This document shows positions 4,301-53,803 of a stretch of 64,000 nucleotides of DNA, piece by piece. The position numbers were made by a program, and so were the translations under genes. This DNA comes from Minisyncoccota bacterium (lineage in GTDB: Bacteria > Patescibacteriota > Minisyncoccia > Phycocordibacterales > UBA9973). The stretch's first letter is position 1; every line of letters begins with the position of its first letter. Under the pieces are notes generated by a model. The model was not told where the DNA came from and ran no database searches. It saw only the letters and a list, made by a program, of their open reading frames with translations. The stretch covers positions 9,220 through 73,219 of the forward strand of contig JBAYKO010000001.1 in the NCBI GenBank assembly GCA_041664605.1, written 5' to 3'.

Positions 4301-4938
4301 TACCACCAGGACTCTACAAGATAGTTCCAAATAAAACAAACTATTTCTTTCCATCTAAAACATTATCTGAACACATAGATGAACTATACCCAGATCTATA
4401 TTTTGGAGAAGAAATCAAAGTTTCTGATGGTGAAGTGATTGCTAATAATATACCAATGGATCCAGAACACTTTGATTGGAATGAATTCCAAAAGAACAAA
4501 CAAAAACTATTTAAATTCTATTCTAAAAAACAAAAAATATTAACTCAAATTTCTGCTTTCTTCTTTACGATAGGTATGATACTAGCAACCATTGCATTGA
4601 TTACTTTCACTAAACCTTACAATATAATTATCTTTGCTCTATATATCATAGTATTCATACTACAACGCACAGTTATCAAAAAAAGAGTAAGAGGTAAGAT
4701 TATAAAGGGAGAAGATCCATTATCATTTGCTATCATTCGCATATTCTCTAGTGCAACTGATGTAGAAATCTCCCATAAAGTAGCAGACAATATGGGAAGA
4801 TACTTTGCTCTAGTACCTAATGGAAACTACTATGTTCAAATTGAAGAAAAGAAATCTGACGGAACTTATTCTTTGGTTTACAAGTCTGAACCGATTGAGG
4901 TGAAGGGTGGAATTTTGAATAAAGGATTTGTTGTTTAA
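1309..4938 (+). CDS. large surface/adhesin-like protein: N-terminal TM/signal, about 8 LVIVD repeats, 4 DUF5011 Ig-like domains, a Cys-rich TSP1-like module, C-terminal TM helices and two carboxypeptidase-regulatory-like beta-sandwich domains
   Basis: Repeated units ...NYAYI.S....LEIIDITNKA.PVH.G.IYD... (literal LVIID). Four units PPVIT..G..P.TI..G..YTDAGATA.DD.D..IT..I....VDINT.GTYT.TYNVTD..N.ATEVTR.V.V.D. A WSDW..C...R.C motif. Hydrophobic helices near residues 1000-1090. Confidence 0.7.
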   Translation: MNPVKLTKHIFQKHKLEFMCVLVLVFFISIYSLYKSNASGIILTHTGKIYDNSVDGSGAALNYPESVFVLDNYAYIVSSTSKSLEIINITNKSAPVHTGTIYDNSIDGSGAVLLYPRDVFVQGNYAYIASSGSHALEIIDITNKATPIHTGVIYSDFLSGSGATLNSPSSVFVLDNYAYLTSGTPGSLEIIDITNKATPVHMGVVNDADLADGPTDLFVQGNYAYIPSYYSDALVIIDITNKAAPVHAGTIYDNSIDGSGAALNSPVSVFVLDNYAYVTSLDSLSLEIINITNKSAPVHTGTIYDNSIDGSGAFIAFPNDVFVQGNYAYIVSSFYDVPPDISGNGVLEVVDISIPTAPVHLNKIFDIDGGAALDGPSSVFIQENYAYIVSNLSNSFEIINISENNPPVITRLGTTPITLNVGDSYTDAGATAFDDVGGNITADIITVNPVDINTPGTYTVTYNVTDNEGNSATEVTRTVNVEDNPPVITLLGTTPVTIHQGDTYTDAGATALDDVDLDITASIVTVNPVDINTLGTYTITYNVTDSGLNNATEVTRIVNVVDVTIPLITLVGDNPSTVIKGQTYTDAGATAVDDTDGDITASIIITGLDTIDTNTVGSYTVYYNVSDLALNPALEVTRTVNVVDNSPVITLVGDASVTIDEGTSYTDAGATALDDVDLNITASIVTVNPVDINTPGTYTVTYNITDSGGNPATEVTRIVIVSEVISSCVGCACGGCGYSLLPVAGGWSDWTPVNDGVCGTIIEQIRTCTNPTPAYNGADCSLLDGGNNSRNFSNPDCTIVPTCTDQIKNGTETEIDCGGSCPICLISIPFCIEFPEKCIPPPDPILTCEELGNCPITTDSINPENPTDPINPENPSLLSINNITSENLISQNSNLVSVSTISSPIIHPEIDSIFRIISGLSLILAVATASELAPILFRMWSLFLTALGLRKKVKPWGVVFDAITKQPLDPVYVSLQNMDGTEVTSCITDLDGRYGFLVPPGLYKIVPNKTNYFFPSKTLSEHIDELYPDLYFGEEIKVSDGEVIANNIPMDPEHFDWNEFQKNKQKLFKFYSKKQKILTQISAFFFTIGMILATIALITFTKPYNIIIFALYIIVFILQRTVIKKRVRGKIIKGEDPLSFAIIRIFSSATDVEISHKVADNMGRYFALVPNGNYYVQIEEKKSDGTYSLVYKSEPIEVKGGILNKGFVV
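1438..2520. repeat. tandem LVIVD-type repeat-coding region (about 8 units)
   Basis: periodic, roughly 130-bp repeats at both the nucleotide and protein level. Confidence 0.6.
2521..3480. repeat. four tandem ~240-bp repeats encoding DUF5011-like Ig domains
   Basis: near-identical stretches such as tatactgacgctgg...gttactagaa recur four times. Confidence 0.75.
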
Positions 4939-4978
4939 ATAATTTGAAAATATCCTTATTTTCTGATATCTTTTAAAG

Positions 4979-11504: not shown

Positions 11505-12710
11505 ATGATAACAAATATAATACTCGCAATATTAGTAGTCGGAGTTGTTTATTTAATTTTTAAGAAAGAAGATATAAATTTAAATGACGATGGAAAAATT
11601 ATTGAAGAAAATGCTCGTTTAAAAGCAGAGGTAAGTCAAAAAGATAAAAACATTGGACAGATAGCAATGGAACTTCAATCAGAAAAAACTCAAAAAGATG
11701 AATTATCTGGTAAGAATAAACGAATGTTTGTTGAAATTACAAACTTAAAAGCTAAAAATACTAGCATACTAACTGAAAAGGAAGATTTAGTAAAAGAAGT
11801 CAGCAATTTTAAGGCCACGGAAGAAAGAAAAAACAAAGAATTTGATGACAAAATTCAAAAATTAGAAGAAGCAAAACTTGCTCTTGAGGACGAAAGGAAA
11901 AGGGTTAGAAGAGAAGATGAGGAAAAGATTCAAAGTGAAAAAGAAGAAAGGAATCGAATGTGGGCTGAGCACGAAGAAGTTGTAAAGGTTAAGTTAACAG
12001 AATTATGTAAAACCCCTCAATATGCCTTTCAATATTATGACAACAATAATTTACCAAATGGTTTTGGAGGGAAATTTAAACCTGATTTTTTGATTGAATT
12101 TCTTGAACAATATGTAATTTTTGATGCTAAAGTTTCGGAGTCTGATTTACAGGGTTATATCAATAATAATGTAAAATCAACTGTAGAAAAAATAAATAAT
12201 AATCCAAATATTTATCCGATGGTATTTTTTATAGTACCAACCGATACAATAAAATCTTTAAAAAAGACCCATTTTTATGAACAAGGTTATAATTTTTTCG
12301 TTATTTCACCAGAAGCAATTGAAATTATTCTTGCTTCTTTAAAAAAAATTACTTCTTATGAATTAGCTGAACAATTAGATCCAAGGGATAGAGAGAATAT
12401 TGTTAATTTAATAGCAGAATTTGATTATCATATAAACATGAGAAATGCTTTAGATATTTTAGCATCAGAAAGTGGTGTTTCTGTTTTGAAAAAAGCGGAT
12501 TCACTTAGAAATGATATTAAGGAAGAAATTTTTCAAAAAAAGGGAAAAATGCGGTTACAACAATTTACTCCTACTGATATTAAAACTCTAATGGTTAGTA
12601 CTGAAACTCAACGAGAAAAAATAGACGAGCTGGTCTCTCCTAAAGTAGCTATTTCTGAAGATACTTTAAAAAAAGTAAGACCTGTTTTAGGAAAAAAGAA
12701 TAAAAAATAA
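11505..12710 (+). CDS. RmuC-family protein (N-terminal TM helix, long coiled coil, C-terminal restriction-endonuclease-like domain)
   Basis: TM helix ILAILVVGVVYLIF; K/E-rich coiled coil; KPDFLIEFLEQYVIFDAKVSE matches the RmuC pattern KPDF.I.....V.IDAK. Confidence 0.55.
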   Translation: MITNIILAILVVGVVYLIFKKEDINLNDDGKIIEENARLKAEVSQKDKNIGQIAMELQSEKTQKDELSGKNKRMFVEITNLKAKNTSILTEKEDLVKEVSNFKATEERKNKEFDDKIQKLEEAKLALEDERKRVRREDEEKIQSEKEERNRMWAEHEEVVKVKLTELCKTPQYAFQYYDNNNLPNGFGGKFKPDFLIEFLEQYVIFDAKVSESDLQGYINNNVKSTVEKINNNPNIYPMVFFIVPTDTIKSLKKTHFYEQGYNFFVISPEAIEIILASLKKITSYELAEQLDPRDRENIVNLIAEFDYHINMRNALDILASESGVSVLKKADSLRNDIKEEIFQKKGKMRLQQFTPTDIKTLMVSTETQREKIDELVSPKVAISEDTLKKVRPVLGKKNKK

Positions 12711-14520: not shown

Positions 14521-14713
14521 ATTTTTATAGTTAATTTAATAATTGACAAACAAAAAGCCCATCACGGGTAGAGACCGAAATCTCTCATATTGGTTTCCCA
14601 ATATGGCGTATGAAGCGACCCCATGACGGGTTTTTTATGCTTCATACGACTTATTCACCATGCCCTTATTACTAAAGGTTTAGGCTACTTGTTTATTTGG
14701 TTGTATTGATATT

Positions 14714-18292: not shown

Positions 18293-18409
18293 GTAAGATA
18301 TGCTAGTTAATTTTAACAATTATAATTATTTTTTGATTTTATATTTATTTAAGTAATCAATAACAACTATGATATCTAGTATAAATTTGGAAAACTAATA
18401 ATCAAAACT

Positions 18410-18898
18410 ATGAAAATAAACAAAAATAAAAACAAAATAAAAACTATTAAAAGCACGCAAGATAAGAATAAGAGCTCTTATGATAGCCTTAACCCCTTAA
18501 TTTTAGCTAAACAGATTCTAATAAAAGGTGAATCAAGGCGAGAATTCGTTGATTTTGTTGAGCAATTACGCGTCTCGCTGGGTATAAACACACCAGTTGA
18601 AGCAGAAATATTCAAAAAATATATTTTTTCTTCGTGGAAATTGAGGAGAATGAGAGAAATGGAAAAAAATATTTTGAATAGTCAACAAATATTCCAAGAG
18701 AAAAAAGAATACGATTATTTTGGAGACGTTATCTCTAAAAAAACACCTTCCAAAAAAAGAAGGGTTAGGAATATAAGCATGATTTACATAAATGATGAGA
18801 TACAGAAAGTATTAAATTTTCAGGACAAACTAGAAAAACAAACAACCAAAATTCTTAGACAACTAAGAGAAGAACAAAATTTAAATAAAATTGATTAA
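18410..18898 (+). CDS. hypothetical basic protein
   Basis: 162-aa K/R-rich ORF. Confidence 0.4.
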   Translation: MKINKNKNKIKTIKSTQDKNKSSYDSLNPLILAKQILIKGESRREFVDFVEQLRVSLGINTPVEAEIFKKYIFSSWKLRRMREMEKNILNSQQIFQEKKEYDYFGDVISKKTPSKKRRVRNISMIYINDEIQKVLNFQDKLEKQTTKILRQLREEQNLNKID

Positions 18899-32480: not shown

Positions 32481-32517
32481 CATTCCAACATTCTGTAGAA
32501 TGTTGGAATGTGAAATT

Positions 32518-32921: not shown

Positions 32922-32980
32922 AAATTCCCCACTTTGGTGGGGTTTTTACATTGTGTTATATTAATTCTATTGTCCTCGTA

Positions 32981-33048
32981 GTTCAATGGACCCCAGCACT
33001 AAAATTTTAAATCGAATGTACTTAAAATTTAGTGCGGGGCGAGAAGTG
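32981..33048 (+). other. duplicated 5' fragment of tRNA-Arg (19 nt) fused to a GC-clamped hairpin
   Basis: gtcctcgtagttcaatgga is identical to nt 1-19 of the tRNA-Arg at 33100; then ccccagcact...agtgcgggg inverted repeat. Confidence 0.6.
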
Positions 33049-33099
33049 ATTATGTCATGATTTTTGTAATTAAATTCGGTTATATAAAAATAAAAGTAT

Positions 33100-33171
33100 G
33101 TCCTCGTAGTTCAATGGATAGAACAGCTCCGTCCTAAGGAGTAGATATAGGTTCGATTCCTGTCGAGGACA
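33100..33171 (+). tRNA. tRNA-Arg (anticodon CCT)
   Basis: GTCCTCG acceptor; anticodon loop gtCCTaa; T-loop TTCGATT. Confidence 0.8.
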
Positions 33172-33278
33172 CAAATGTTGTTTGTGTTCGAGAAAGAATA
33201 AATTTATTTATTCTTGTGCAGGAATCGAAAGGATTTTCCATGTCGCAGATGGGAAAATCACCCGCGACAGTAGGGCGA

Positions 33279-33295
33279 GATTCCTGTCGAGGACA
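33279..33295 (+). other. duplicated 3' fragment of tRNA-Arg (17 nt)
   Basis: gattcctgtcgaggaca is identical to the 3' end of the tRNA-Arg. Confidence 0.55.
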
Positions 33296-33297
33296 CA

Positions 33298-33627
33298 TTG
33301 GTATTTTCTGTTATTTTTGATAATATAAGCTATATGGATCCTGAAATAAAAGCTCTTTTTGAAGAGAACCTTAAGGTTAATAAAGAGAACAATGTAATAC
33401 TTAAAAAAATGCGAAGGTCTCAAAAAAGATCAGATTATTTGAGACTTTTTTATTGGCTGGTAATTATCGGTATAACAGCGGGTGCTTTTTATTTTATAAA
33501 TCCCTTTATTGGGAAAATTACTTCAATTCTTAGTAGTGGGACACAAATACAAGGTGCTCAAAATTTAAGTGGAAATTTATATGATTTGAATAAGATTAAG
33601 GATTTAATGAATCAAGTAAAAAAATAA
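33298..33627 (+). CDS. hypothetical membrane protein
   Basis: 109 aa with one TM helix. Confidence 0.35.
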   Translation: MVFSVIFDNISYMDPEIKALFEENLKVNKENNVILKKMRRSQKRSDYLRLFYWLVIIGITAGAFYFINPFIGKITSILSSGTQIQGAQNLSGNLYDLNKIKDLMNQVKK

Positions 33628-33678
33628 AAGGGTTATCTTTTAACTTTATAACTTTATGAACTTTTAACTTATGTATAT

Positions 33679-33755
33679 GCCCAAGTAGCTCAGTTGGTTA
33701 GAGCATTCGCCTGAAGAGCGAGGGGTCGGCAGTTCGAATCTGCCCTTGGGCACCA
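33679..33755 (+). tRNA. tRNA-Phe (anticodon GAA), CCA encoded
   Basis: GCCCAAGTAGCTCAGTTGG...; anticodon loop ctGAAga; ends GGGCACCA. Confidence 0.9.
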
Positions 33756-33816
33756 AATAAAAAAAACATCTTCTTTGAAATTTGAGCAGAAGAGATTAAA
33801 GAAATATAAATAATAA

Positions 33817-33852
33817 AAACCCCGCTCCGATTTTGGTCGGAGCGGGGTTTTT
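33817..33852. terminator. bidirectional terminator
   Basis: aaaaccccgctccgattttggtcggagcggggttttt. Confidence 0.7.
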
Positions 33853-33853
33853 A

Positions 33854-34345
33854 TTATACTGATTTTACTTTTAGATTTGTTTGTTTATTCTTGTCTATTT
33901 TCGGAAGTTTTATTATTAGAAGTCCGTGTTTTTCCATAGCCTCAGCATCTTCTGGTTCAATCTCTTGGGGAAGTAGGATTGATCGCGAGAATGATCCCCA
34001 ATATAATTCTTTTACAAAATAATTGTCATCGTTTATTGTCCTATTTACCTCTCTCCTTCCTTTGAGGTTTACCATGTCTCTTGTGATGTTTATACTTAAA
34101 TCTTCTGGTCTTACTCCTGCTACCATAGTTTGAATTACAATATCGGTTGGCGTCTGATATACATCAACAGAAAGTTGTCCGTCTTCCTCCTCTTCATTAA
34201 ATTCCTCCTCGTCGAAATCACCTGTAGTTGATTTTACAGAAAGTTTTCTCTTTTTGCTGGTTTCTTCTTCAATCCCTCTTTCATCTTCTTCGTCTAATCT
34301 AACACCTCCGGTTAATCTTTCAAAAAATGATCTTTTTTTTGCCAT
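33854..34345 (-). CDS. Hsp20/alpha-crystallin small heat-shock protein
   Basis: alpha-crystallin core ...VKELYWGSFSRSILLP...; 163 aa. Confidence 0.75.
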   Translation of the reverse strand: MAKKRSFFERLTGGVRLDEEDERGIEEETSKKRKLSVKSTTGDFDEEEFNEEEEDGQLSVDVYQTPTDIVIQTMVAGVRPEDLSINITRDMVNLKGRREVNRTINDDNYFVKELYWGSFSRSILLPQEIEPEDAEAMEKHGLLIIKLPKIDKNKQTNLKVKSV

Positions 34346-34463
34346 CCCAATTAGAAATTAAAAACTTTTACTTAATATTATCTTAAATTTATAAAAGTAA
34401 TTAATTGTGATTATGTTTTTAAATTTTCCCATCAGTATATTTTTAATGGGACACGTAAATTTT

Positions 34464-35171
34464 TTAACGAACCCTAATTCTTAAATCTGGATCCATTCTT
34501 CTTAGTTTTTCAAAAAGTAACATTATAATAATAGTAATGACCCACAAGAATGAGAAAATATTTATAAGATTCCCCTTGTTGTTATTCATTATAAAAAAAT
34601 TAAAAATACTATGCAAGGAAATCGCAGCAATTATTCCACAAAATAAATAAATTCTTTTAACATAAACCTTTTTATAATAAAAAGCTAGTCCCAGTGATAT
34701 TCCAATTAAGGCACTAGATGAAGAATGAAGTAGTGTTGCACCCAAAAATCTTAAGTTTCCTGTAATTAAACTAACTGTTGTTTCATTTAGAAGTATTGGT
34801 TTTATTAAAAACATTGTATTTTCAAGAGCAGCAAAACCAAGAGCGGCAGTTATAAAATATATAGGATAGTCCACTGGTTCATCAAGGGAACTACTCTTTA
34901 ACGCGATTACAGCTACAGCTAAATATTTCATTATTTCTTCTAACATTGCCCAGATTACTGTTAAGTAATTTTTGTCAGTGATATTTGCGTTAGCCCATTT
35001 TTCAAGAGGTAAAACCAGTGCAACGGCAACCATCCCCAAAATAAAAGTAAGAAATAATAATCCTTTTGGTTCAGGTTCTTCTTTGTCTTGTTTTAACCAA
35101 AACCAAAGCCAAATCAAGGCCGGGATTGTTCCTGCAACCAATGCTATTATTAATATTTTTGGATTTTGCAT
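34464..35171 (-). CDS. PrsW-like intramembrane protease family protein
   Basis: Membrane protein with EEIMK (EExxK), FAALE (FxxxE) and HSIFN (HxxxN) motifs. Confidence 0.45.
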   Translation of the reverse strand: MQNPKILIIALVAGTIPALIWLWFWLKQDKEEPEPKGLLFLTFILGMVAVALVLPLEKWANANITDKNYLTVIWAMLEEIMKYLAVAVIALKSSSLDEPVDYPIYFITAALGFAALENTMFLIKPILLNETTVSLITGNLRFLGATLLHSSSSALIGISLGLAFYYKKVYVKRIYLFCGIIAAISLHSIFNFFIMNNNKGNLINIFSFLWVITIIIMLLFEKLRRMDPDLRIRVR

Positions 35172-35259
35172 AGATTAGGTTTTAGATAAGAATTTTCATT
35201 TTTTACTTTATAACCCCAGTAGTAGAGCAAAGCTCACTACGGGGCATGCTTTATAAACT

Positions 35260-37458
35260 TTATAACTTTCTACTTATTTGGGGCCAGGGTTCTACTATTA
35301 ATAAATTTTTATTTTTTTCTGGTAATAATCCCCAAATTTCTTCCGTAATAAAAGGCATAAAGGGATGAAGACAAACTAAAATTTTATTAAGTGTGTGTAA
35401 TAAAAACTGTCTCCTTGATAATTTTTCTTCTTCTGTTCCATTTTCAAATATTTTTTTACTATCTTCTAAAATTATATCTGCAAATTGGTGCCATGTATAA
35501 TGGTAAATTTTTTCAGAAGCAATATAGAATTTATAGTCGTCCATATCTTTAGTTATATCAACTATTAAATCATGTCTTTCTTTTTGTAAATCTAAATCTT
35601 TTTCCGAATAATTTTCAAAATTTTTGTCATATTTTATTTCTTTTGTGTTATCTAAAACAAATCTTGTTATATTCCAAATTTTATTTGCAAAGTGTTTATA
35701 TCCTTTTATTTCTTCTTCTGCTATTCTCATATCTATTCCAGGGCTTTTTGAAACAATAAGAGACATTCTAACAGCATCAGCTCCGTATTTTTCTATAACT
35801 TCAATAGGATTTATTCCATTGCCGAGTGATTTACTCATTTTCCTTCCTTGTTTATCTTTTACCATTCCATGGAGATAAACAGTGTTAAAAGGTTTTTCTC
35901 CTAAAATATATTCTGACATTAAAATCATTCTAGCTACCCAAAAGAAAAGTATGTCATACATTGTCTCTAGTACATTTGTTGGATGATAAGTTTTTAAATC
36001 TTCGGTTTTTTCCGGCCATCCCAAAGTTGAGAATGTCCAAAGACCAGATGAAAACCAAGTATCAAGTGTATCTTCATCTTGAATCCAGCCATCTTCTTTA
36101 GGTGCTTCTGTATTGCAATAAATTTCTTCACCCTTGTACCAAACAGGAATTCTGTGACCATACCAAATTTGTCTTGAAATACACCAATCACGCAGATTTT
36201 CAATCCAGTGAAAATAAGTTTTATCAAAATAATTAGGAATTAATTTGATTTCTTTATCACGAATTGGTTCCAACATTAATTCTTTAAGACTTTTGTCCCC
36301 GCGATTTTTAATTTTTTTATTAACATCAATAAACCATTGAAGTTTTGGCAATGGTTCAATTGTCCCACCAGTTCTATCCGCAACAGAAATGTTTTGTTCA
36401 ATTTCTTCTTCTTTTTCTAATAACCCTTCTTTTTTTAACCACTCAACAATAATTTCTCTAGCCTCAGTAGTTTTTTTGCCTTTCAAATTTTCGTTATCAA
36501 TCATCATTCGGGCTTTTTCATCAATAACTTGAATAATCGGTAAATTATTTTTTTGCGCCATTTCCCAGTCAATTACACTGTGAGCAGGGGTAACTCCAAG
36601 AGCGCCAGTTCCAAAACCTTTATCAACTTCATAGTCTGCAATTATTTTTATTTCTAATTTAACTCCGCAAAAATTATCTATAGTGTAAGTTTTACCAACA
36701 AATTCTTTGTAACGAGGATCGTCGGGGTGAACAGCAACAGCGGTATCACCAACCTTCGTTTCAGGCCTTGTTGTGGAAATTGAAATAGGGAAGTCTTTCG
36801 AATATTTAAAAGTATAAAATTTTGCTTTATTTGGTTTATGATCAACTTCATCATCAGAAACAACCGTTTGACCTTTGGGATCCCAGTTTACAATTCTAAG
36901 TCCTCTATAAATTAAACCGTCTTCATACATTTGTTTAAATGCTGTGCGAACGGCCAAGTTTCTTTTTTCATCAAATGTAAATGCTTCACGAGACCAATCC
37001 ATAGAAGAGCCCATTTTTTTTAATTGACCGATTATAGTGTTATGACTTTCGTCTGCGAATTTTTCAACTCTTTTTAAAAATTCCTCTCTTCCTAAATCAT
37101 ATCTTGATTTATTTTCTTTTTTTAACAGTTCTTTTTCAACAACTGATTGAGTTGCAATAGCAGCATGGTCAGTTCCTGGAACCCATAAAGTTCTTTTACC
37201 CCTCATTCTATTATAACGGATCATTATATCTTCAATTGTAGTACCTAATGCGTGACCCATGTGTAAAATTCCAGTTACATTAGCTGGGGGAAATGAAATA
37301 CAAAAAGATTCGGCGTTTTTTTCTGTAAAACCTTTTTCTATACAAATATCAGGATTAAAAAGCCCACTTTCTTCCCAAAGTTTATAAATACGAGACTCAG
37401 TTTCTTTTGGGTCATAAGGTTTTAAAAGTTTTTCATTTATATTATTTTCTAGTGCCAT
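35260..37458 (-). CDS. valS: valyl-tRNA synthetase (compact, no C-terminal coiled coil)
   Basis: HIGH motif PPANVTGILHMGHAL; KMSKS motif GRKMSKSLGN; editing domain present; 732 aa. Confidence 0.9.
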   Translation of the reverse strand: MALENNINEKLLKPYDPKETESRIYKLWEESGLFNPDICIEKGFTEKNAESFCISFPPANVTGILHMGHALGTTIEDIMIRYNRMRGKRTLWVPGTDHAAIATQSVVEKELLKKENKSRYDLGREEFLKRVEKFADESHNTIIGQLKKMGSSMDWSREAFTFDEKRNLAVRTAFKQMYEDGLIYRGLRIVNWDPKGQTVVSDDEVDHKPNKAKFYTFKYSKDFPISISTTRPETKVGDTAVAVHPDDPRYKEFVGKTYTIDNFCGVKLEIKIIADYEVDKGFGTGALGVTPAHSVIDWEMAQKNNLPIIQVIDEKARMMIDNENLKGKKTTEAREIIVEWLKKEGLLEKEEEIEQNISVADRTGGTIEPLPKLQWFIDVNKKIKNRGDKSLKELMLEPIRDKEIKLIPNYFDKTYFHWIENLRDWCISRQIWYGHRIPVWYKGEEIYCNTEAPKEDGWIQDEDTLDTWFSSGLWTFSTLGWPEKTEDLKTYHPTNVLETMYDILFFWVARMILMSEYILGEKPFNTVYLHGMVKDKQGRKMSKSLGNGINPIEVIEKYGADAVRMSLIVSKSPGIDMRIAEEEIKGYKHFANKIWNITRFVLDNTKEIKYDKNFENYSEKDLDLQKERHDLIVDITKDMDDYKFYIASEKIYHYTWHQFADIILEDSKKIFENGTEEEKLSRRQFLLHTLNKILVCLHPFMPFITEEIWGLLPEKNKNLLIVEPWPQISRKL

Positions 37459-37543
37459 ATATGGGTATAATATAACATTTTAAAGGGATTTTTGAAATAA
37501 TTTTTGAAACTACACCCGCACACTTAGAATTAAGTGTGCGGGG

Positions 37544-37578
37544 TTGACAAAAAAACTAGGTTTGTTATACTGTATGCA
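37544..37578 (+). promoter_or_regulatory. sigma70-like promoter candidate (TTGACA, about 16 nt, TATACT)
   Basis: ttgacaaaaaaactaggtttgttatact. Confidence 0.4.
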
Positions 37579-37584
37579 GATTTG

Positions 37585-38086
37585 ATGGTCGTTTTATTAA
37601 ACTCTCTTTAAACAGTAGTTGGCTAGCGCAGGCCCATCCCGCGGAAACATTAGGGTGAGACTCCCTATAGAAAACGAGCTAGCCAATTGCTGATGGATTT
37701 TAATAAACACTTTAGTTTTTTAAATAATATAAATTTATAAAGATAGTAGTTGGTCACCATAGGCTGTGACAACTCAGGCATTGTTAGTTTGATTCTTAAT
37801 AACTTTGCCAACATGGATTATCTGATGATCAGGGATCCAGTGTCTTTCAGACAAACAAAGGTTCATCTTTCATTTTTAAGAATCCGAAAGAAATCCACGA
37901 TGGAATTCTTCTCGTCATTAAATTTGGATCTTTGTTTTTCTTTTTTAAATATATTTTCCAGACAAGGTTTTACCTTGAAAGGACTTTGTGGGAAGACCCA
38001 CTGTTACTAAAAAGAAAAGCCTCCAGAATGGAAGGAGAAACGGCTTTTAGAGACACACACGCGAGTAATCGCGTGTTTTTGTTTTT
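37585..38086 (+). ncRNA. candidate structured non-coding RNA, family unidentified
   Basis: No plausible ORF. A 10-bp long-range helix gttggctagc/gctagccaat encloses a GC-rich core. Several further hairpins follow. The stretch ends at the intrinsic terminator 38057..38086. Confidence 0.35.
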
Positions 38087-38157
38087 ATTGACAAAAACAT
38101 TTAATATGATAAATTATCAAACAGATAAATAAGTTATTCACGTTAAATATTCTGTGT

Positions 38158-38370
38158 ATGGAAAATTTCAAAACTCCCAAAATAAGTATTAATTTTATCC
38201 CATGGCTTTTGTTTGTGGGAATATGGACTGCATCACTCTTTATGAATGTATTTGTGTTTAGAACAGATACTTATCTGTATGTGAACGTAGTAGTTTCGAT
38301 TCCCCTCACTATTTGGGGAATTGCGTTGTGGATAAAAGATCACAGAATGAAACATTATCGTTTGTCGTGA
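38158..38370 (+). CDS. small two-TM membrane protein, hypothetical
   Basis: 70-aa ORF preceded by a promoter-like TTGACA. Confidence 0.3.
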   Translation: MENFKTPKISINFIPWLLFVGIWTASLFMNVFVFRTDTYLYVNVVVSIPLTIWGIALWIKDHRMKHYRLS

Positions 38371-38459
38371 TTTTTAAACATTAAATTATTAAAAACACCC
38401 TTTCATGGGTGTTTTTGTTTTTATTCCTCACAATTTTAATTTTTAAAATAGTGAGGGGT

Positions 38460-39653
38460 TTACAATTCCAAATTTCCCTGAGCTCTCAAGGTTTTTGAAC
38501 TTACATTTTTAGATTTACTTCTAAAAAATCCGGCGATTGCTATCATTATAGAATTATCGGTTGATAGATCTTTGGCAGGGAAGTAGACTTTTAATTTTTT
38601 TGTATTTTTACAAACTTCTGTAAATGTTTCTCGAATTTTTTGATTAGCTGAAACTCCACCCCCAATAATTAAAGTTTTTGCTTTGTATTTTTCTACAGCA
38701 CCCATAGTTTTTTTAATCAAAACTTCTACAACGGAATCTTCAAACTCTTTTGCAATGTCTTTTTTCATTTGGTCATTTTGCAAAATGTTTGAATGTTGTT
38801 TCTCAAGATTGCGAATTAAATAAAAAACTGCAGTTTTTAATCCGGAAAAAGAAAAATCAAAATCTTTGGAATTTATCATAGGTCGGGGGAGCTTAATCAA
38901 ATCATTTTGTTTTCCGTTTTTTGCTAATTTTGAAATTTGTGGGCCACCAGGATAAGGAAGTCCAAGCATTCTAGCAACCTTGTCAAAAGCTTCACCAACT
39001 GCGTCGTCTCTCGTTTTTCCAATAACTTTATATTTTAACCAGTCTTTCATCAAAACAATTTCTGTATGCCCACCACTTATAAGTAGAGCCATAGCAGGGA
39101 ATTGAACTTTATTAATTTTTTTATCATCAATTAAAGTAGAAACCATATGACCTTCCATATGATTTACTGGGATTAATTTTTTTTTCCAAACAAAAGATAA
39201 AGCTTTTGCAAAATTCAGTCCAACCCAAAGTGCTGGCTCAAGTCCTGGTCCATAAGTAACAGCAATTGCATCAATTTTTGGAATTTTGATTTTGGGAATA
39301 AGATTTAAAAATTTTTCTAATAGTTCTGGTTCTCTTTCTAATATTTTATTTATTTTGTCATTTTGCAAAATGTTTGAATGTTGTTTTCGAAGAACTAAAA
39401 GTCTTGCTTCTTTTAAGACTCTTTCTAAAATAGGTATGATATTTTTTGAGTGTTCTCTTTTTGCCATCATAGGAAAAACACCCCCATACTTTTCATGGAT
39501 TTTAATTTGTGAAGCCACTTCATTCCCAAGAATTTTAAATTTTGCCTGCCCGCCAAAGCCTTGGCGACGGCGGGGATGTTTAATTGTCCCCGAAGCTTCT
39601 ATTATACTTATTGCTGTTTCATCACATGATGTCTCGATACTTAAAATTTTCAT
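38460..39653 (-). CDS. tsaD: tRNA N6-adenosine threonylcarbamoyltransferase TsaD (carries two short duplicated insertions)
   Basis: MKILSIETSCDETA..., HMEGH metal site, GGVSAN; 397 aa versus about 340 typical. Confidence 0.85.
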   Translation of the reverse strand: MKILSIETSCDETAISIIEASGTIKHPRRRQGFGGQAKFKILGNEVASQIKIHEKYGGVFPMMAKREHSKNIIPILERVLKEARLLVLRKQHSNILQNDKINKILEREPELLEKFLNLIPKIKIPKIDAIAVTYGPGLEPALWVGLNFAKALSFVWKKKLIPVNHMEGHMVSTLIDDKKINKVQFPAMALLISGGHTEIVLMKDWLKYKVIGKTRDDAVGEAFDKVARMLGLPYPGGPQISKLAKNGKQNDLIKLPRPMINSKDFDFSFSGLKTAVFYLIRNLEKQHSNILQNDQMKKDIAKEFEDSVVEVLIKKTMGAVEKYKAKTLIIGGGVSANQKIRETFTEVCKNTKKLKVYFPAKDLSTDNSIMIAIAGFFRSKSKNVSSKTLRAQGNLEL

Positions 39654-39831
39654 AATTAAAATCTAACGTATTTTTAATAAAAATACTATATCTGTTGTGG
39701 CTAGAAATAATTTTGTCGCCGTCGCTCAAAAATTTTTCCAGCCCTGACTCGTCTGTTTTTTCTACTGAAAAAACATGACTCCGTCTCTCACAGCTAAAAA
39801 ATTCAAAGTAGTTTGAATTTTTCTTTACGCT

Positions 39832-39905
39832 GTGAGCGGTAGAAGGATCGGACTTCTGACCTCTTCGATGTCAACGAAGCGCTCTACCACTGAGCTAACC
39901 GCTCC
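39832..39905 (-). tRNA. tRNA-Val (anticodon GAC), with a non-canonical T-loop and a G1-A72 mismatch
   Basis: The reverse complement reads GGAGCGGTTAGCTCAGTGGTAGAGCGCTTCGTTGACATCGAAG...CTTCTACCGCTCA, with the anticodon loop ttGACat. Confidence 0.6.
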
Positions 39906-39920
39906 AAAATTAAACACAAA

Positions 39921-39968
39921 CGCTCTACTTCACCCCGCCATGGCGGGGCAGGCTGAGCTAACCGCTCA
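39921..39968 (-). other. duplicated 5' fragment of tRNA-Val (16 nt, with a T at position 1) plus a GC hairpin insertion
   Basis: minus strand tgagcggttagctcag-cctgccccgccatggcggggtgaag-tagagcg. Confidence 0.6.
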
Positions 39969-40050
39969 TATTTTATAAGATTACATTATTTTTTTTAAAA
40001 AACAAATTTGATGTATAATCAAAGTAGATGATCTTAAAAAGGATATAATT

Positions 40051-40542
40051 ATGAAAAAGAGAGTTTACTTCATTGCTTTTGATAATCCTCTCGTCAAGGT
40101 TTGTACAAGTGGAGTTTTTCCTTTAGAAATAGTTGTAGATTTGACAAGACTTTATGATAATGGAGATTTAAAAAGAGAAATGAGATGGCAATTTTTTGGT
40201 GAATTAGAAGATGGTTCTTTTGATTTAATAATAATTAAAGAAGATATTTTTCAAGCTATTGAGGAGTTTTTTGCTTCTGAATTCAAAACTTTGATACTTT
40301 TTTTTAATAATAAATATTTGTCTTATTTTAAAGAAGTGACAAAAGAACAAGAAGAATATATATTACAGACGACAGAAATAATTTTTTGTGATGATGTTCT
40401 TAATCTAAACTTGGGGGAATATTTAAAAAAGAAAAAGATTCTCTGCACTCTTAATTTTGAAGGAGAAAGACTCAGTATTAATAGAATTTCTACTGAAGAC
40501 ATACCAAATTCTTTTTCAAAAAAATTTATTCCATTAAATTAA
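40051..40542 (+). CDS. hypothetical protein
   Basis: 163-aa ORF followed by a terminator hairpin. Confidence 0.4.
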   Translation: MKKRVYFIAFDNPLVKVCTSGVFPLEIVVDLTRLYDNGDLKREMRWQFFGELEDGSFDLIIIKEDIFQAIEEFFASEFKTLILFFNNKYLSYFKEVTKEQEEYILQTTEIIFCDDVLNLNLGEYLKKKKILCTLNFEGERLSINRISTEDIPNSFSKKFIPLN

Positions 40543-40631
40543 AAAAATCCGCCACAAGCGGATTTTTCTTATTCTTGATATTTTTATATTTTATGGTAAT
40601 ATTAAATCAGATGTTTTAAAAAGTTATTTTT

Positions 40632-40982
40632 ATGGATACTCCAACGATAATTTCTTTATTACTTATTTTTATAATAATAAGTAGTCTTATTGTAAGAATT
40701 GTTGATGAAATATTTGGGAGAACAACCCTCATAGAAGGAGAGGTTTATTACAAAAAAGAGGAAACTTTTTCCTCGAGTATTAATGACGACAGTGGTTTAC
40801 CCATTATTTGTCAAAATATGAAATCATTTTTCCTTTACTTGAAAGTAAAGGAAAAGAAGAGAAAAATTTCTGTTGATTTACAAGATTTTAATAAGGTTAT
40901 AAATGGAACATATAAATTTTCCTTTAAAGAAGGGCTTGTCTCCAAAAAACTTTATTATCAAAAGATTCTCTTTAATGATTAA
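40632..40982 (+). CDS. hypothetical protein with an N-terminal TM helix
   Basis: 116-aa ORF. Confidence 0.35.
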   Translation: MDTPTIISLLLIFIIISSLIVRIVDEIFGRTTLIEGEVYYKKEETFSSSINDDSGLPIICQNMKSFFLYLKVKEKKRKISVDLQDFNKVINGTYKFSFKEGLVSKKLYYQKILFND

Positions 40983-41037
40983 TAAAAAGACATAAAGATG
41001 TTACCTAAAACCCCGCACAATGCGGGGTTTAACTTTG

Positions 41038-41124
41038 CGGAGGTGGGAGGATTTGAACCTCCGATCCACTTGCGCGGATTCCGCGTTTCGAGTGCGGTGC
41101 CTTCAACCACTCAGCCACACCTCC
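41038..41124 (-). tRNA. tRNA-Ser (anticodon CGA), type II with a long variable arm
   Basis: reverse complement GGAGGTGTGGCTGAGTGGTTGAAGGC...ctCGAaa...GGTTCAAATCCTCCCACCTCCG. Confidence 0.75.
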
Positions 41125-41215
41125 GTGAACTTTTCTACTATAACATTTTTGCTATTTTTATTAAAAATGTTATTATATTTTCTAGTTTTTAAAAATCAAA
41201 AATAAAATATTATTT

Positions 41216-41275
41216 GGCCCTATCGTCCCTGCCAGCCCTCACGATAGTTCGGGAGCAGGCTGGTAACGGTTAGGA
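41216..41275 (+). other. duplicated 5' fragment of tRNA-Glu interrupted by a 36-nt GC-rich hairpin
   Basis: ggccctatcgtc-[cctgccagccctcacgatagttcgggagcaggctgg]-taacggttagga, compared with the intact ggccctatcgtctaacggttagga at 41526. Confidence 0.65.
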
Positions 41276-41285
41276 TATAAAAATT

Positions 41286-41540
41286 ATGTATTTTGTGTAT
41301 GTTTTAAAAAGCAAAATTGATAATAAACTTTATTATGGTTTTACTAATGATTTAGAAAGAAGAGTTAGAGAACATAATAATAAAGAAGTGAGAGCAACAA
41401 GGCCTAGAGTTCCTCTTGAATTGATTTACTTTGAAAATGTAGATAATATAGAAAAAGCAAGAAAAAGAGAAAAATATTTTAAAAGTGGTTTTGGAAGAAA
41501 ATATATAAAAAACAAAATATTATTTGGCCCTATCGTCTAA
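41286..41540 (+). CDS. GIY-YIG nuclease family protein (YhbQ/UPF0213-like)
   Basis: YFVYVLKS...LYYGFTNDLERRVREHN; 84 aa; the stop codon lies inside the 5' end of tRNA-Glu. Confidence 0.7.
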   Translation: MYFVYVLKSKIDNKLYYGFTNDLERRVREHNNKEVRATRPRVPLELIYFENVDNIEKARKREKYFKSGFGRKYIKNKILFGPIV

Positions 41541-41597
41541 CGGTTAGGACATCGGCTTTTCAAGCCGGTAATCCGGGTTCGATTCCCGGTAGGGTCA
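41526..41597 (+). tRNA. tRNA-Glu (anticodon TTC)
   Basis: GGCCCTATCGTCTAACGGTTAGGAC; anticodon loop ttTTCaa; T-arm GGGTTCGATTCCC. Confidence 0.85.
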
Positions 41598-41699
41598 CAG
41601 CTTATTTTAACCTTATTATGTAAGGGGTATTTTTTGTTGACAAAAGATGGATAATTTGATATCTTGTGAATAGAAAAAGTTATTTTAAATGATGAAAGT

Positions 41700-52931: not shown

Positions 52932-53654
52932 ATGCAATTAAATTTAGAAGAAAATAATCTTCATCATGCTTATCTTATAGAAGGGGATAAGAATTCTATT
53001 ATTCCACTTATTTTTGATTTTATAAAAAGTATGGGAATTGAAACAGAAGGAAATGGAGATATTTGGTATCAAGAAATAAAAACTTTAAACATAGAAGGTA
53101 GTCACCAAATAAAAGCAAGACAAATAGAAAGAGGTTTGATGGGTGGTAAAAAGTTTTTTATTTTTGCTATTGATTTTTTTACCAGAGATGCAGAACAAGC
53201 ATTACTAAAGGTTTTTGAGGAACCAGCAGAAAATGTTCACTTTTTCATAATTACTCCGACGACTGACTTTCTTTTAGAGACATTAAAATCTAGATTTGTT
53301 TTAATAAAATCAGATGAAGAAAAATTTATTTCGGACGATATAAAAAATTTAGCAAAAAAAATAATTGAATCTTCTCAAAAAGAAAGACTTGATTTAGTAG
53401 GAAAATTTATTAAGAAATATGAAGAAGAAGAAATCCACGCGTATATGAGAAGTGATTCTACTAACCTTTTAAATATGATTGAAAAAGAATATTACGAAAA
53501 ATCTGACCCACGCCAAGGCGGGGCAGGCAAAAATTTTTCAAAAGACCAGATTTTTCTTTTTGATGAATTAATTAAGGTAAAAAATTATTTAAATGATAAA
53601 GGTTCATCAGCTAAAATGCTTTTAGAACATATTGTTTTAATTTTACCTAAATAA
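52932..53654 (+). CDS. holB: DNA polymerase III delta'-like clamp-loader subunit
   Basis: HHAYLIEG, ALLKVFEEP and SRF-like TLKSRF motifs. Confidence 0.6.
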   Translation: MQLNLEENNLHHAYLIEGDKNSIIPLIFDFIKSMGIETEGNGDIWYQEIKTLNIEGSHQIKARQIERGLMGGKKFFIFAIDFFTRDAEQALLKVFEEPAENVHFFIITPTTDFLLETLKSRFVLIKSDEEKFISDDIKNLAKKIIESSQKERLDLVGKFIKKYEEEEIHAYMRSDSTNLLNMIEKEYYEKSDPRQGGAGKNFSKDQIFLFDELIKVKNYLNDKGSSAKMLLEHIVLILPK

Positions 53655-53803
53655 AAGAATAAAAACAGAAATTTATAAAAACAGAAGGGCTAATTCCCTC
53701 CAAAGGCGGGCAGGCGCTCTAATTAGCCCACCTGTTTTTACTTGACAAATAGTTTATTGTCTGATAAGATTTAGGCAGAAAAAATGTTCTAAATATATTT
53801 AAT

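Follow-up and report, generated by a model that had tools for sequence, protein, structure and literature searches.

The genes for tRNA-Arg(CCT), tRNA-Val(GAC), and tRNA-Glu(TTC) in a 64,000-nucleotide (nt) stretch of the Minisyncoccota bacterium contig JBAYKO010000001.1 – hereafter the window – each have, upstream and on the same strand, an exact duplicate of their first nucleotides (19, 15, and 12 nt, respectively) that runs into a GC-rich hairpin. At tRNA-Glu, a gene for an 84-amino-acid GIY-YIG nuclease lies between this ‘self-fragment’ and the intact tRNA gene. Comparisons with related genomes suggest that the three fragments are probably the old starts of the resident tRNA genes, pushed out of place, and that they mark tiny selfish GIY-YIG/hairpin cassettes in the tRNA genes of Patescibacteria.

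tRNA self-fragments, hairpins, and a GIY-YIG gene

We located self-fragments by exact k-mer matching and by direct reading of the sequence. ARAGORN and Rfam identified six tRNA genes in the window, and exact k-mer matching found no 5′ self-fragment for the remaining three (tRNA-Gly, tRNA-Phe, and tRNA-Ser). The chance expectation for the shortest fragment, of 12 nt, is ~400/4^12 by our calculation. Exact same-strand matches of 12–19 nt that begin at tRNA position 1 within 310 nt upstream of the gene are not attributable to chance. The tRNA genes behind the fragments are complete and score 64–66 bits.

An initial annotation of this DNA had described partial 5′ copies and GC-rich hairpins before the same three tRNAs. 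Exact matching confirmed them and moved the start of the Arg fragment from 32981 to 32972. The annotation had also placed all three breaks at one structural position; the D-arm region is indeed common to them, but a single nucleotide is not, since the hairpins follow tRNA positions 19 (Arg), 15 (Val), and 12 (Glu). Nor do the Val and Glu fragments end at the hairpin, as had been assumed. Instead, the tRNA sequence resumes behind it and continues to positions 25 and 24, so that the hairpin is an insertion within the fragment; at tRNA-Arg, the hairpin is followed by a spacer (Table 1).

Table 1. Features of the three fragment-bearing tRNA loci and further copies of the CCTGCC hairpin family, in window coordinates.
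Locus	Feature	Position	Strand	Basis or remark
tRNA-Arg	5′ self-fragment of tRNA-Arg(CCT), positions 1–19	32972–32990	+	exact match
tRNA-Arg	49-nt GC-clamped hairpin (CCCCAGCAC...GTGCGGGG) with AT-rich inner stem, after fragment position 19	32991–33039	+	
tRNA-Arg	60-nt AT-rich spacer from hairpin to intact tRNA-Arg	33040–33099	+	weak D-stem remnant CGAGAAG at start
tRNA-Arg	intact tRNA-Arg(CCT)	33100–33172	+	ARAGORN, Rfam
tRNA-Arg	structured element 3′ of tRNA-Arg, opening with T-arm reverse complement CAGGAATCGA	33216–33278	+	no Rfam match
tRNA-Arg	3′ self-fragment, positions 56–73 plus CA	33279–33297	+	exact match
tRNA-Val	5′ self-fragment of tRNA-Val(GAC), positions 1–15	39953–39967	-	exact match
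tRNA-Val	CCTGCC-family hairpin CCTGCCCCGCCATGGCGGGG, after G15 of the fragment	39933–39952	-	
tRNA-Val	fragment resumption TGAAGTAGAGCG, D-arm up to position 25	39921–39932	-	
tRNA-Val	16-nt spacer	39905–39920	-	
tRNA-Val	intact tRNA-Val(GAC)	39832–39904	-	ARAGORN, Rfam
tRNA-Glu	upstream copy: 12-nt leader AAAATATTATTT and tRNA-Glu positions 1–12	41204–41227	+	exact match
tRNA-Glu	36-nt Glu-type hairpin CCTGCCAGCCCTCACGATAGTTCGGGAGCAGGCTGG	41228–41263	+	
tRNA-Glu	fragment resumption, positions 13–24	41264–41275	+	exact match
tRNA-Glu	84-amino-acid single-domain GIY-YIG nuclease gene	41286–41540	+	10 nt after fragment
tRNA-Glu	intact tRNA-Glu(TTC)	41526–41598	+	ARAGORN, Rfam
tsaD	CCTGCC-family hairpin inside gene, antisense to it	39545–39575	+	in-frame 10-amino-acid insert RRRQGFGGQA
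delta′-like gene	CCTGCC-family hairpin, in frame in DNA polymerase III delta′-like gene	53507–53527	-	peptide DPRQGGAG
terminator-like stem	CCTGCC-family hairpin in loop of stem GGGCTAATT/AATTAGCCC (53687–53729)	53696–53714	-	

As annotated, the Val and Glu hairpins begin with CCTGCC and belong to one family, and the Arg hairpin is unrelated to them in sequence. Fragment and hairpin together form a more stable fold than shuffled controls do (z = -2.3 to -3.4, the latter for tRNA-Arg), as would be expected of any GC palindrome. An Rfam 15 search of the fragment/hairpin region at E ≤ 1 matched the six tRNAs only and returned no family for the hairpins or for the element 3′ of tRNA-Arg. A role as intrinsic terminator was considered for the three hairpins and rejected, since no T-run follows any of them.

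The nuclease gene at tRNA-Glu is fused to its neighbor. Positions 1–15 of tRNA-Glu double as its final 15 nt, TAA stop codon included, and encode its C-terminal residues (FGPIV). The protein matches the Pfam GIY-YIG domain over residues 1–72 (4.4e-15) and no other domain, with weak NCBIfam matches. Across 21 homologues, its GIY and YIG tyrosines, arginine, and glutamate are conserved. Among solved structures, the UPF0213 proteins 1zg2 and 1ywl are the nearest (1e-7), followed by Slx1 and I-TevI. We do not file the protein as a classical homing endonuclease because it consists of the catalytic domain alone, lacking a DNA-binding module of the kind present in I-TevI and Seg enzymes. An identical protein is deposited at NCBI from a ‘Candidatus Paceibacterota’ metagenome-assembled genome (MAG). 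A profile search of all six-frame open reading frames (ORFs) of the window found no further GIY-YIG gene. No second hairpin is present 3′ of the window gene; the tRNA occupies that place.

We observed the same arrangement in many other genomes. The 84-amino-acid protein has 177 homologues, mostly from Paceibacteria and Nomurabacteria MAGs, with the C-termini ALSSNG* and FGPIV* corresponding to the tRNA-Glu 5′ end in two reading frames. A same-strand tRNA abuts or overlaps the ORF in at least 56 of 80 public metagenome loci with GIY-YIG relatives. Ten tRNA identities are represented there: the closest relatives lie at tRNA-Glu (TTC or CTC) and more distant ones at tRNA-Asn, His, Thr, Met, Pro, Leu, Val, Lys, and Gln.

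By automatic parsing, 40 of 46 non-redundant loci, spanning eight tRNA amino-acid identities, carry a self-fragment of their own tRNA together with a GC hairpin before the ATG, within 80 nt upstream of it as in the window. The fragments in these 40 loci start at or near position 1 (mostly at 1), end at positions 11–41, and stop 1–22 nt before the ATG. Each contains one to three hairpins (19–70 nt, GC 0.62–0.84) inserted after tRNA positions 4–32. The window tRNA-Glu locus is a typical member of this layout, and its hairpin is of the commonest type, homologous to hairpins 5′ of GIY-YIG genes in many other genomes. The outer part of Glu-type hairpins can pair in two mutually exclusive registers, CCTGC/GCAGG or CCAGCC/GGCTGG (alignment A2). 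Compensatory changes preserve one register in some genomes and the other in others – modest evidence, with one covarying pair per register. The two registers may reflect a stem with two stable states or pairing that directs cleavage.

Self-fragments are also more frequent than expected in a set of Patescibacteria tRNA genes. Among 119 tRNA genes in Patescibacteria loci, 13 have an upstream 5′ self-fragment of at least 10 nt and 10 have a downstream 3′ self-fragment; by our estimate, about one would be expected by chance. The control set for a contrast with other phyla comprised six tRNAs. In two loci, L150 and L151 (numbers with the prefix L denote related loci), the layout is mirrored: an intact tRNA-Leu is followed by the ORF and then by a 3′ self-fragment with nested hairpins. 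A scan of viral contigs found no relatives of the nuclease.

GIY-YIG relatives that are not next to tRNAs are enclosed by the two arms of a longer hairpin and interrupt a GxxExxY-type gene. The ORF is flanked by the arms of such a long GC hairpin (CCCGCCCGCCTCGCCTGAGCGAG ... CTCGCGATGGCGGGCAGG) in L137, L139, L140, L144, L145, L147, L152, L154, L157, L162, and L164–L168; in L140, L144, L157, L164, and L166 the whole unit splits the GxxExxY-type coding sequence (..KVFNELG / unit / FGFLESVYKKAM..). An ORF between two arms of the same inverted repeat was seen for this long hairpin type and was not found for the hairpin type of the window.

Unusual tRNA-like sequences occur at some of the related loci. 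In L127 and L133, the sequences 3′ of the GIY-YIG ORF are tRNA-like genes that ARAGORN does not call and that appear to contain a long anticodon-loop insertion, group I intron-like by eye. L011 holds a near-complete pseudo-tRNA-Glu 5′ of the functional gene (4760–4972), with a hairpin after position 12, an anticodon-loop insert of ~108 nt, and positions 47–58 retained.

Polymorphic sites, imported tRNA sequence, and dispersed hairpins

Most orthologues of the three tRNA genes in related genomes lack both fragment and ORF. Such presence/absence polymorphism at orthologous sites, as known for free-standing homing endonucleases, is illustrated by the mostly empty tRNA-Glu genes and by the empty locus L024 and its filled counterpart L098. 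Upstream of these two, 41 of 43 nt are identical with the register unchanged, and the shared flank ends exactly at tRNA +1 in the empty locus and at fragment +1 in the filled one. We compared the upstream flanks by local alignment, since a global MAFFT alignment had aligned the tRNA only; the score was 39 against a mean of 9.6 (standard deviation 3.7). The common flank includes an extended -10-like motif (TGTTATGAT). Similar motifs precede the fragment by 10–14 nt in other filled loci, and the Arg fragment of the window likewise has one (TGTTATATT) ~10 nt upstream. The register of the shared flank and the position of these motifs indicate that the fragment is the original start of the resident gene. 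Consensus promoter scanning of the AT-rich window was uninformative (56 matches versus 39.5 expected).

L004 has a Val fragment of the common GCGCGG type, and the functional tRNA-Val behind it has a compensated GGGCGG/CCGCCC acceptor stem; in L110, the fragment likewise differs from the functional tRNA. A chimeric tRNA-Val is present in L025: local sequence makes up the first 26 nt, the remaining 48 nt at the 3′ side agree with the L004 type, from another lineage, at 43 of 48 positions, and a C2-C71 mismatch remains. Behind this chimera come a GIY-YIG ORF and then a remnant of the old gene, and that remnant has a hairpin of the same family at the same site (after G15, then TGAA) as the Val fragment of the window.

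The L025 chimera and the L004 mismatch thus indicate that incoming DNA supplies tRNA sequence, which in turn argues for integration by recombination within the tRNA and not for mere local repair duplication. The proposal that repair had duplicated the 5′ part of each tRNA, raised in the initial annotation, fits less well than a displaced original 5′ end that retains its native promoter. Inheritance of flanking sequence with the nuclease is the co-conversion expected of homing endonucleases, seen in L025 and L004 as single cases and not as a population test. Close relatives also differ in the number of tRNA-Val fragment units, which is zero in L025, one in L026, and two in L023.

The hairpins occur beyond the fragments. 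The motif CCTGCCN(1-2)GCC has five copies in the window compared with 0.03 expected: in the Val and Glu fragments, in tsaD, in a DNA polymerase III delta′-like (holB-like) gene, and in the loop of a terminator-like stem (Table 1). The tsaD and delta′-like copies lie in frame, and the peptide inserted into TsaD is lacking in 20 TsaD orthologues. A short palindromic family with dispersed copies and insertion polymorphism relative to orthologues is what characterizes elements like MITEs (miniature inverted-repeat transposable elements) and REPs (repetitive extragenic palindromes), and agrees with the earlier suggestion of a small non-autonomous element. At related loci, hairpins are also nested within other hairpins. 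These observations fit poorly with a family of tRNA-derived structured RNAs, which had been offered as another possibility: most orthologous tRNA genes have no fragment, close relatives carry zero to two, and hairpins lie inside coding sequences.

We noticed that the same tsaD codon position, just after the start, carries a related in-frame hairpin (RHGGQA) in L025, whose TsaD is 47% identical to that of the window; closer TsaD relatives have no hairpin insert. Insertions at the same codon in two genomes suggest a site preference even within coding sequence.

A putative cassette mechanism and its alternatives

The closest known systems are those of the Ssn nucleases – single-domain GIY-YIG enzymes (cd10448) flanked by hairpin repeats of 20–50 nt (NTS/SRM) that are also dispersed in the genome, and which bind the hairpin and cut single-stranded DNA (ssDNA) upstream of it (Chenal et al., Nat Commun 2025, PMC11893778). 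Ssn-type nucleases were first characterized biochemically in 2025, and their role outside Neisseria and the mobility of gene and hairpin were posed as questions in that work (PMC11893778). We compared the two systems by layout. In both, a single GIY-YIG domain of ~80–95 residues without a DNA-binding domain is encoded next to a hairpin-forming repeat of 20–50 nt that has an asymmetric 5′ extension and is dispersed elsewhere; the published architecture resembles that of an insertion sequence (IS). The gene described here differs in being embedded at a tRNA 5′ end, often overlapping it, with the hairpin inside a partial tRNA copy. In-frame hairpins also occur in coding sequences here, whereas NTS repeats are rarely intragenic, and the Ssn study (PMC11893778) mentions neither tRNA genes nor Patescibacteria.

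A second parallel is SegB of phage T4, a free-standing GIY-YIG homing endonuclease encoded in a tRNA gene cluster (PMC2330249). SegB also adjoins tRNA genes and is inherited with flanking tRNA sequence by co-conversion, to which the L025 chimera is comparable. However, SegB is a larger, multi-domain phage protein whose gene is intergenic and has no self-fragment or hairpin; the nuclease in the window is 84 amino acids long, chromosomal, and bacterial, and the 5′ end of its target is duplicated.

A common cause of the three window cases, as the initial annotation supposed, is likely, and we propose the following cassette. Its complete form, as at tRNA-Glu, would consist of the native tRNA promoter, the old tRNA 5′ part (~positions 1–25) split by a hairpin, a gap of a few nt, the ORF of ~80 codons, and an intact tRNA adjoining or overlapped by that ORF. 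The incoming DNA would supply or regenerate this tRNA in part or in whole, leaving the host with a working gene. The nuclease gene would be transcribed from the tRNA promoter, within the pre-tRNA leader. At tRNA-Val, the 16-nt spacer is too short for a promoter, so fragment and hairpin would have to belong to the pre-tRNA-Val leader. By analogy with Ssn, the hairpin may be the ssDNA motif that the nuclease recognizes, and hairpin-only copies may be non-autonomous derivatives.

Spread between tRNA genes of the same type could proceed by recombination anchored in conserved tRNA sequence. Such anchoring would account for the outcome common to all surviving insertions, namely a single intact tRNA accompanied by a fragment that either begins at +1 (5′ type) or runs to the 3′ terminus (3′ type). 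Hairpins would also multiply alone, with survivors only at harmless places such as dispensable fragments, terminator loops, and tolerated in-frame protein sites. The tRNA-Val and tRNA-Arg loci would be ORF-less versions, either decayed or never autonomous. As no ORF remnant is found at these two loci, their link to the cassette rests on the architecture they have in common and, for tRNA-Val, on the hairpin family and the L025 parallel.

A broader proposal, which we put forward tentatively and consider slightly less than an even bet, is that these loci represent a class of minimal mobile element of ~0.3 kb. It would consist of an Ssn-like GIY-YIG ssDNA nuclease gene and its cognate hairpin and would colonize tRNA genes and other stem-loop DNA in Patescibacteria. 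The element would offset its cost by bringing or regenerating the displaced part of the tRNA, would use the tRNA promoter, and would seed ORF-less hairpins into proteins and terminators. If this is correct, it would provide a natural mobility cycle for the Ssn family, and the self-fragments of tRNAs would be the footprints of that cycle. Natural evidence of mobility comes from the occurrence of both empty and filled sites, from the chimeric tRNA, from derivatives that lack the ORF, and from nested hairpins, and tRNA genes are indicated as the target class. The arrangement would also explain where some small in-frame insertions in proteins and some unusual tRNA leaders of Patescibacteria come from. 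It alerts annotators to tRNA pseudo-fragments and to short ORFs that run into tRNA genes, and offers many natural nuclease/hairpin pairs for ssDNA tools. In the literature that we searched, we found no account of a GIY-YIG gene fused to the 5′ end of a tRNA or of tRNA self-fragments that bear hairpins.

Several observations weigh against the reading of the fragments as cassette footprints. No nuclease ORF or significant remnant lies beside the Arg and Val fragments, as judged by the ORF profile search and by spacer alignment; when aligned locally with the GIY-YIG gene, the Arg spacer scores 23 at best, and 15% of shuffled sequences and 14% of 61-mers drawn at random from the window score as high. 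The Arg hairpin has a different sequence, and tRNA-Val and tRNA-Phe self-fragments in L014, L023, and L026 have no GC hairpin, so that fragments can arise or persist without one. We saw no target-site duplication at the tsaD and delta′-like hairpin sites. GIY-YIG enzymes hydrolyze DNA and alone cannot join strands, and integration would therefore require chemistry beyond that of the nuclease. The initial annotation had invoked a GIY-YIG enzyme with a cut site near the D-loop: the link to the gene is borne out by the metagenome loci, while a single cut site is not, because the hairpins follow tRNA positions ranging from 4 to 32. Finally, the nuclease is found at two syntenic tRNA-Glu loci and is 56–78% identical among aligned relatives, compared with 41–57% for TsaD, whose nearest relatives are all from Patescibacteria MAGs.

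Such conservation and synteny are also compatible with a gene that has been domesticated and is inherited vertically. In that case, the nuclease gene would form a stable operon with tRNA-Glu, in which fragment and hairpin serve as a functional 5′ untranslated region or operator – an autoregulatory target mimic, as in I-TevI, or a stabilizing stem-loop – and the leaders at tRNA-Val and tRNA-Arg would have similar roles in processing or stability. Besides the higher conservation of the nuclease relative to TsaD, such an operon would account for the syntenic cassette at two tRNA-Glu loci in several genomes, for the compensatory changes that maintain hairpin pairing, and for the placement of fragments directly behind promoter-like TGnTAnnnT motifs, with the Val fragment necessarily in a transcript leader. 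It does not account for the many orthologous tRNA genes without fragment and ORF, for the varying number of fragment units among close relatives, or for hairpins whose position and number vary within one tRNA type. The same hairpins also lie in coding sequences and in a terminator loop, and the chimeric tRNA indicates turnover at the DNA level. We consider this operon reading improbable.

To the coincidence of two separate processes we assign an equally low probability. In this scenario, slippage duplicates tRNA 5′ ends, a REP-like GC palindrome spreads independently into dispensable DNA, and the GIY-YIG gene has no causal part at tRNA-Val and tRNA-Arg. The lack of an ORF or ORF remnant at those two loci, the hairpin-free tandem fragments in L014, L023, and L026, and the presence of hairpins in many unrelated contexts are all consistent with it. 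Yet fragment and hairpin directly before the ATG at 40 of 46 nuclease loci, across eight tRNA identities, are too regular for chance association, and the hairpin and insertion site of the window Val fragment recur in L025 beside a GIY-YIG gene. The differences between fragment and functional tRNA in L004 and L110, together with the L025 chimera, favor imported DNA over slippage.

Remnants of attachment sites left by tRNA-targeting prophages or islands are very unlikely. Partial tRNA duplicates flanking an insert are the classical signature of such integrations, and tRNA-Arg has both 5′ and 3′ fragments, but no integrase ORF (tyrosine or serine recombinase) is present between or near the repeats, the inserts are merely 16–300 nt long, and it is the 5′ end that is duplicated here, while integrases typically duplicate the 3′ part; moreover, what recurs beside the fragments is a GIY-YIG ORF, and no relatives were found in the viral contigs scanned. 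Split tRNA genes or a D-loop intron, with the upstream piece contributing to the mature tRNA, would match the exact start at position 1 and the resemblance of the GC-rich hairpins to the pairing segments of split halves, but can be all but dismissed given complete downstream genes, fragments without anticodon and T arms, and fragment-free orthologues as the rule.

Other mobile palindromes and further features of the window

Several other systems resemble parts of the arrangement. REP/RAYT elements (IS200/IS605-like) and the palindromic elements of Rickettsia, the latter reportedly tolerated in frame in protein-coding genes and in RNA genes, are also short palindromes spread in a genome, with a small associated nuclease gene flanked by the repeat. 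The enzyme here is a GIY-YIG hydrolase and not a Y1 transposase, and the repeats differ from both groups in being GC-rich elements of an AT-rich genome with a strong, specific tie to tRNA 5′ parts. Integrative elements that target tRNA genes similarly leave an intact gene plus a partial duplicate, and the functional gene may be a hybrid of resident and incoming sequence; unlike these, the loci described here have no integrase, extend over ~0.3 kb, usually duplicate the 5′ part, and carry a hairpin in the displaced part. The mobile GC clusters of yeast mitochondria are GC-rich palindromic mini-insertions in very AT-rich DNA, also found inside genes. They are organellar, however, with no linked nuclease gene and no tRNA self-fragment layout.

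The window has a G+C content of 31% and encodes chromosomal housekeeping genes, including lepA, valS, tsaD, ftsZ, ftsA, mreB, and the delta′-like gene.

The tRNA-Arg gene is nested between its own 5′ (1–19) and 3′ (56–73) fragments (32972–33297). This layout resembles the insertion of an entire tRNA gene into an older copy that has lost its middle. The ~80-nt element downstream of it (33216–33298) ends in a copy of the last 18 nt of tRNA-Arg. This element is conserved in three divergent genomes – the window, L016 (~18347–18431), and L026 (3′ of tRNA-Arg at 11806–11878) – and 5 of its 20 predicted pairs are altered on both sides in a compensatory manner. A second type of downstream element, with the core GAAAGaCGGAG...GAGTCGGGGTCGCG...GTGACC, follows tRNA-Glu, Arg, Ser, and Phe genes in L004, L011, L087, and L006. 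An Rfam scan of the 3′ elements in L004, L011, and L087 gave no match. The ‘anti-T ... T-copy’ layout was found in 12 of 190 tRNAs.

Within tsaD, an exact direct repeat of ~31 nt is present in two copies (39339–39392 and 38754–38807, minus strand) with no others in the window. An AT-rich palindrome of 14 nt (CATTTTGCAAAATG) lies within the repeat, which codes for KQHSNILQND at residues ~90 and ~285. The TsaD proteins of L002, L003, L008, L017, L019, and L026 contain many lineage-specific short insertions at differing positions (e.g., repeated PKSEARNPKQTKPNGENSKF in L008), which points to small in-frame insertions being frequent in Patescibacteria proteins.

Directly 5′ of tRNA-Gly lies a near-perfect AT-rich palindrome (ACATTCCAACATTCTGTAGAATGTTGGAATGT; 32481–32512, plus strand) that is probably the terminator of the preceding gene. 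Apart from tRNAs, a scan of the whole window with Rfam identified a single family member, a LOOT RNA (RF03000) at 14570–14686 on the minus strand, with a score of 80.9 bits, above the gathering score.

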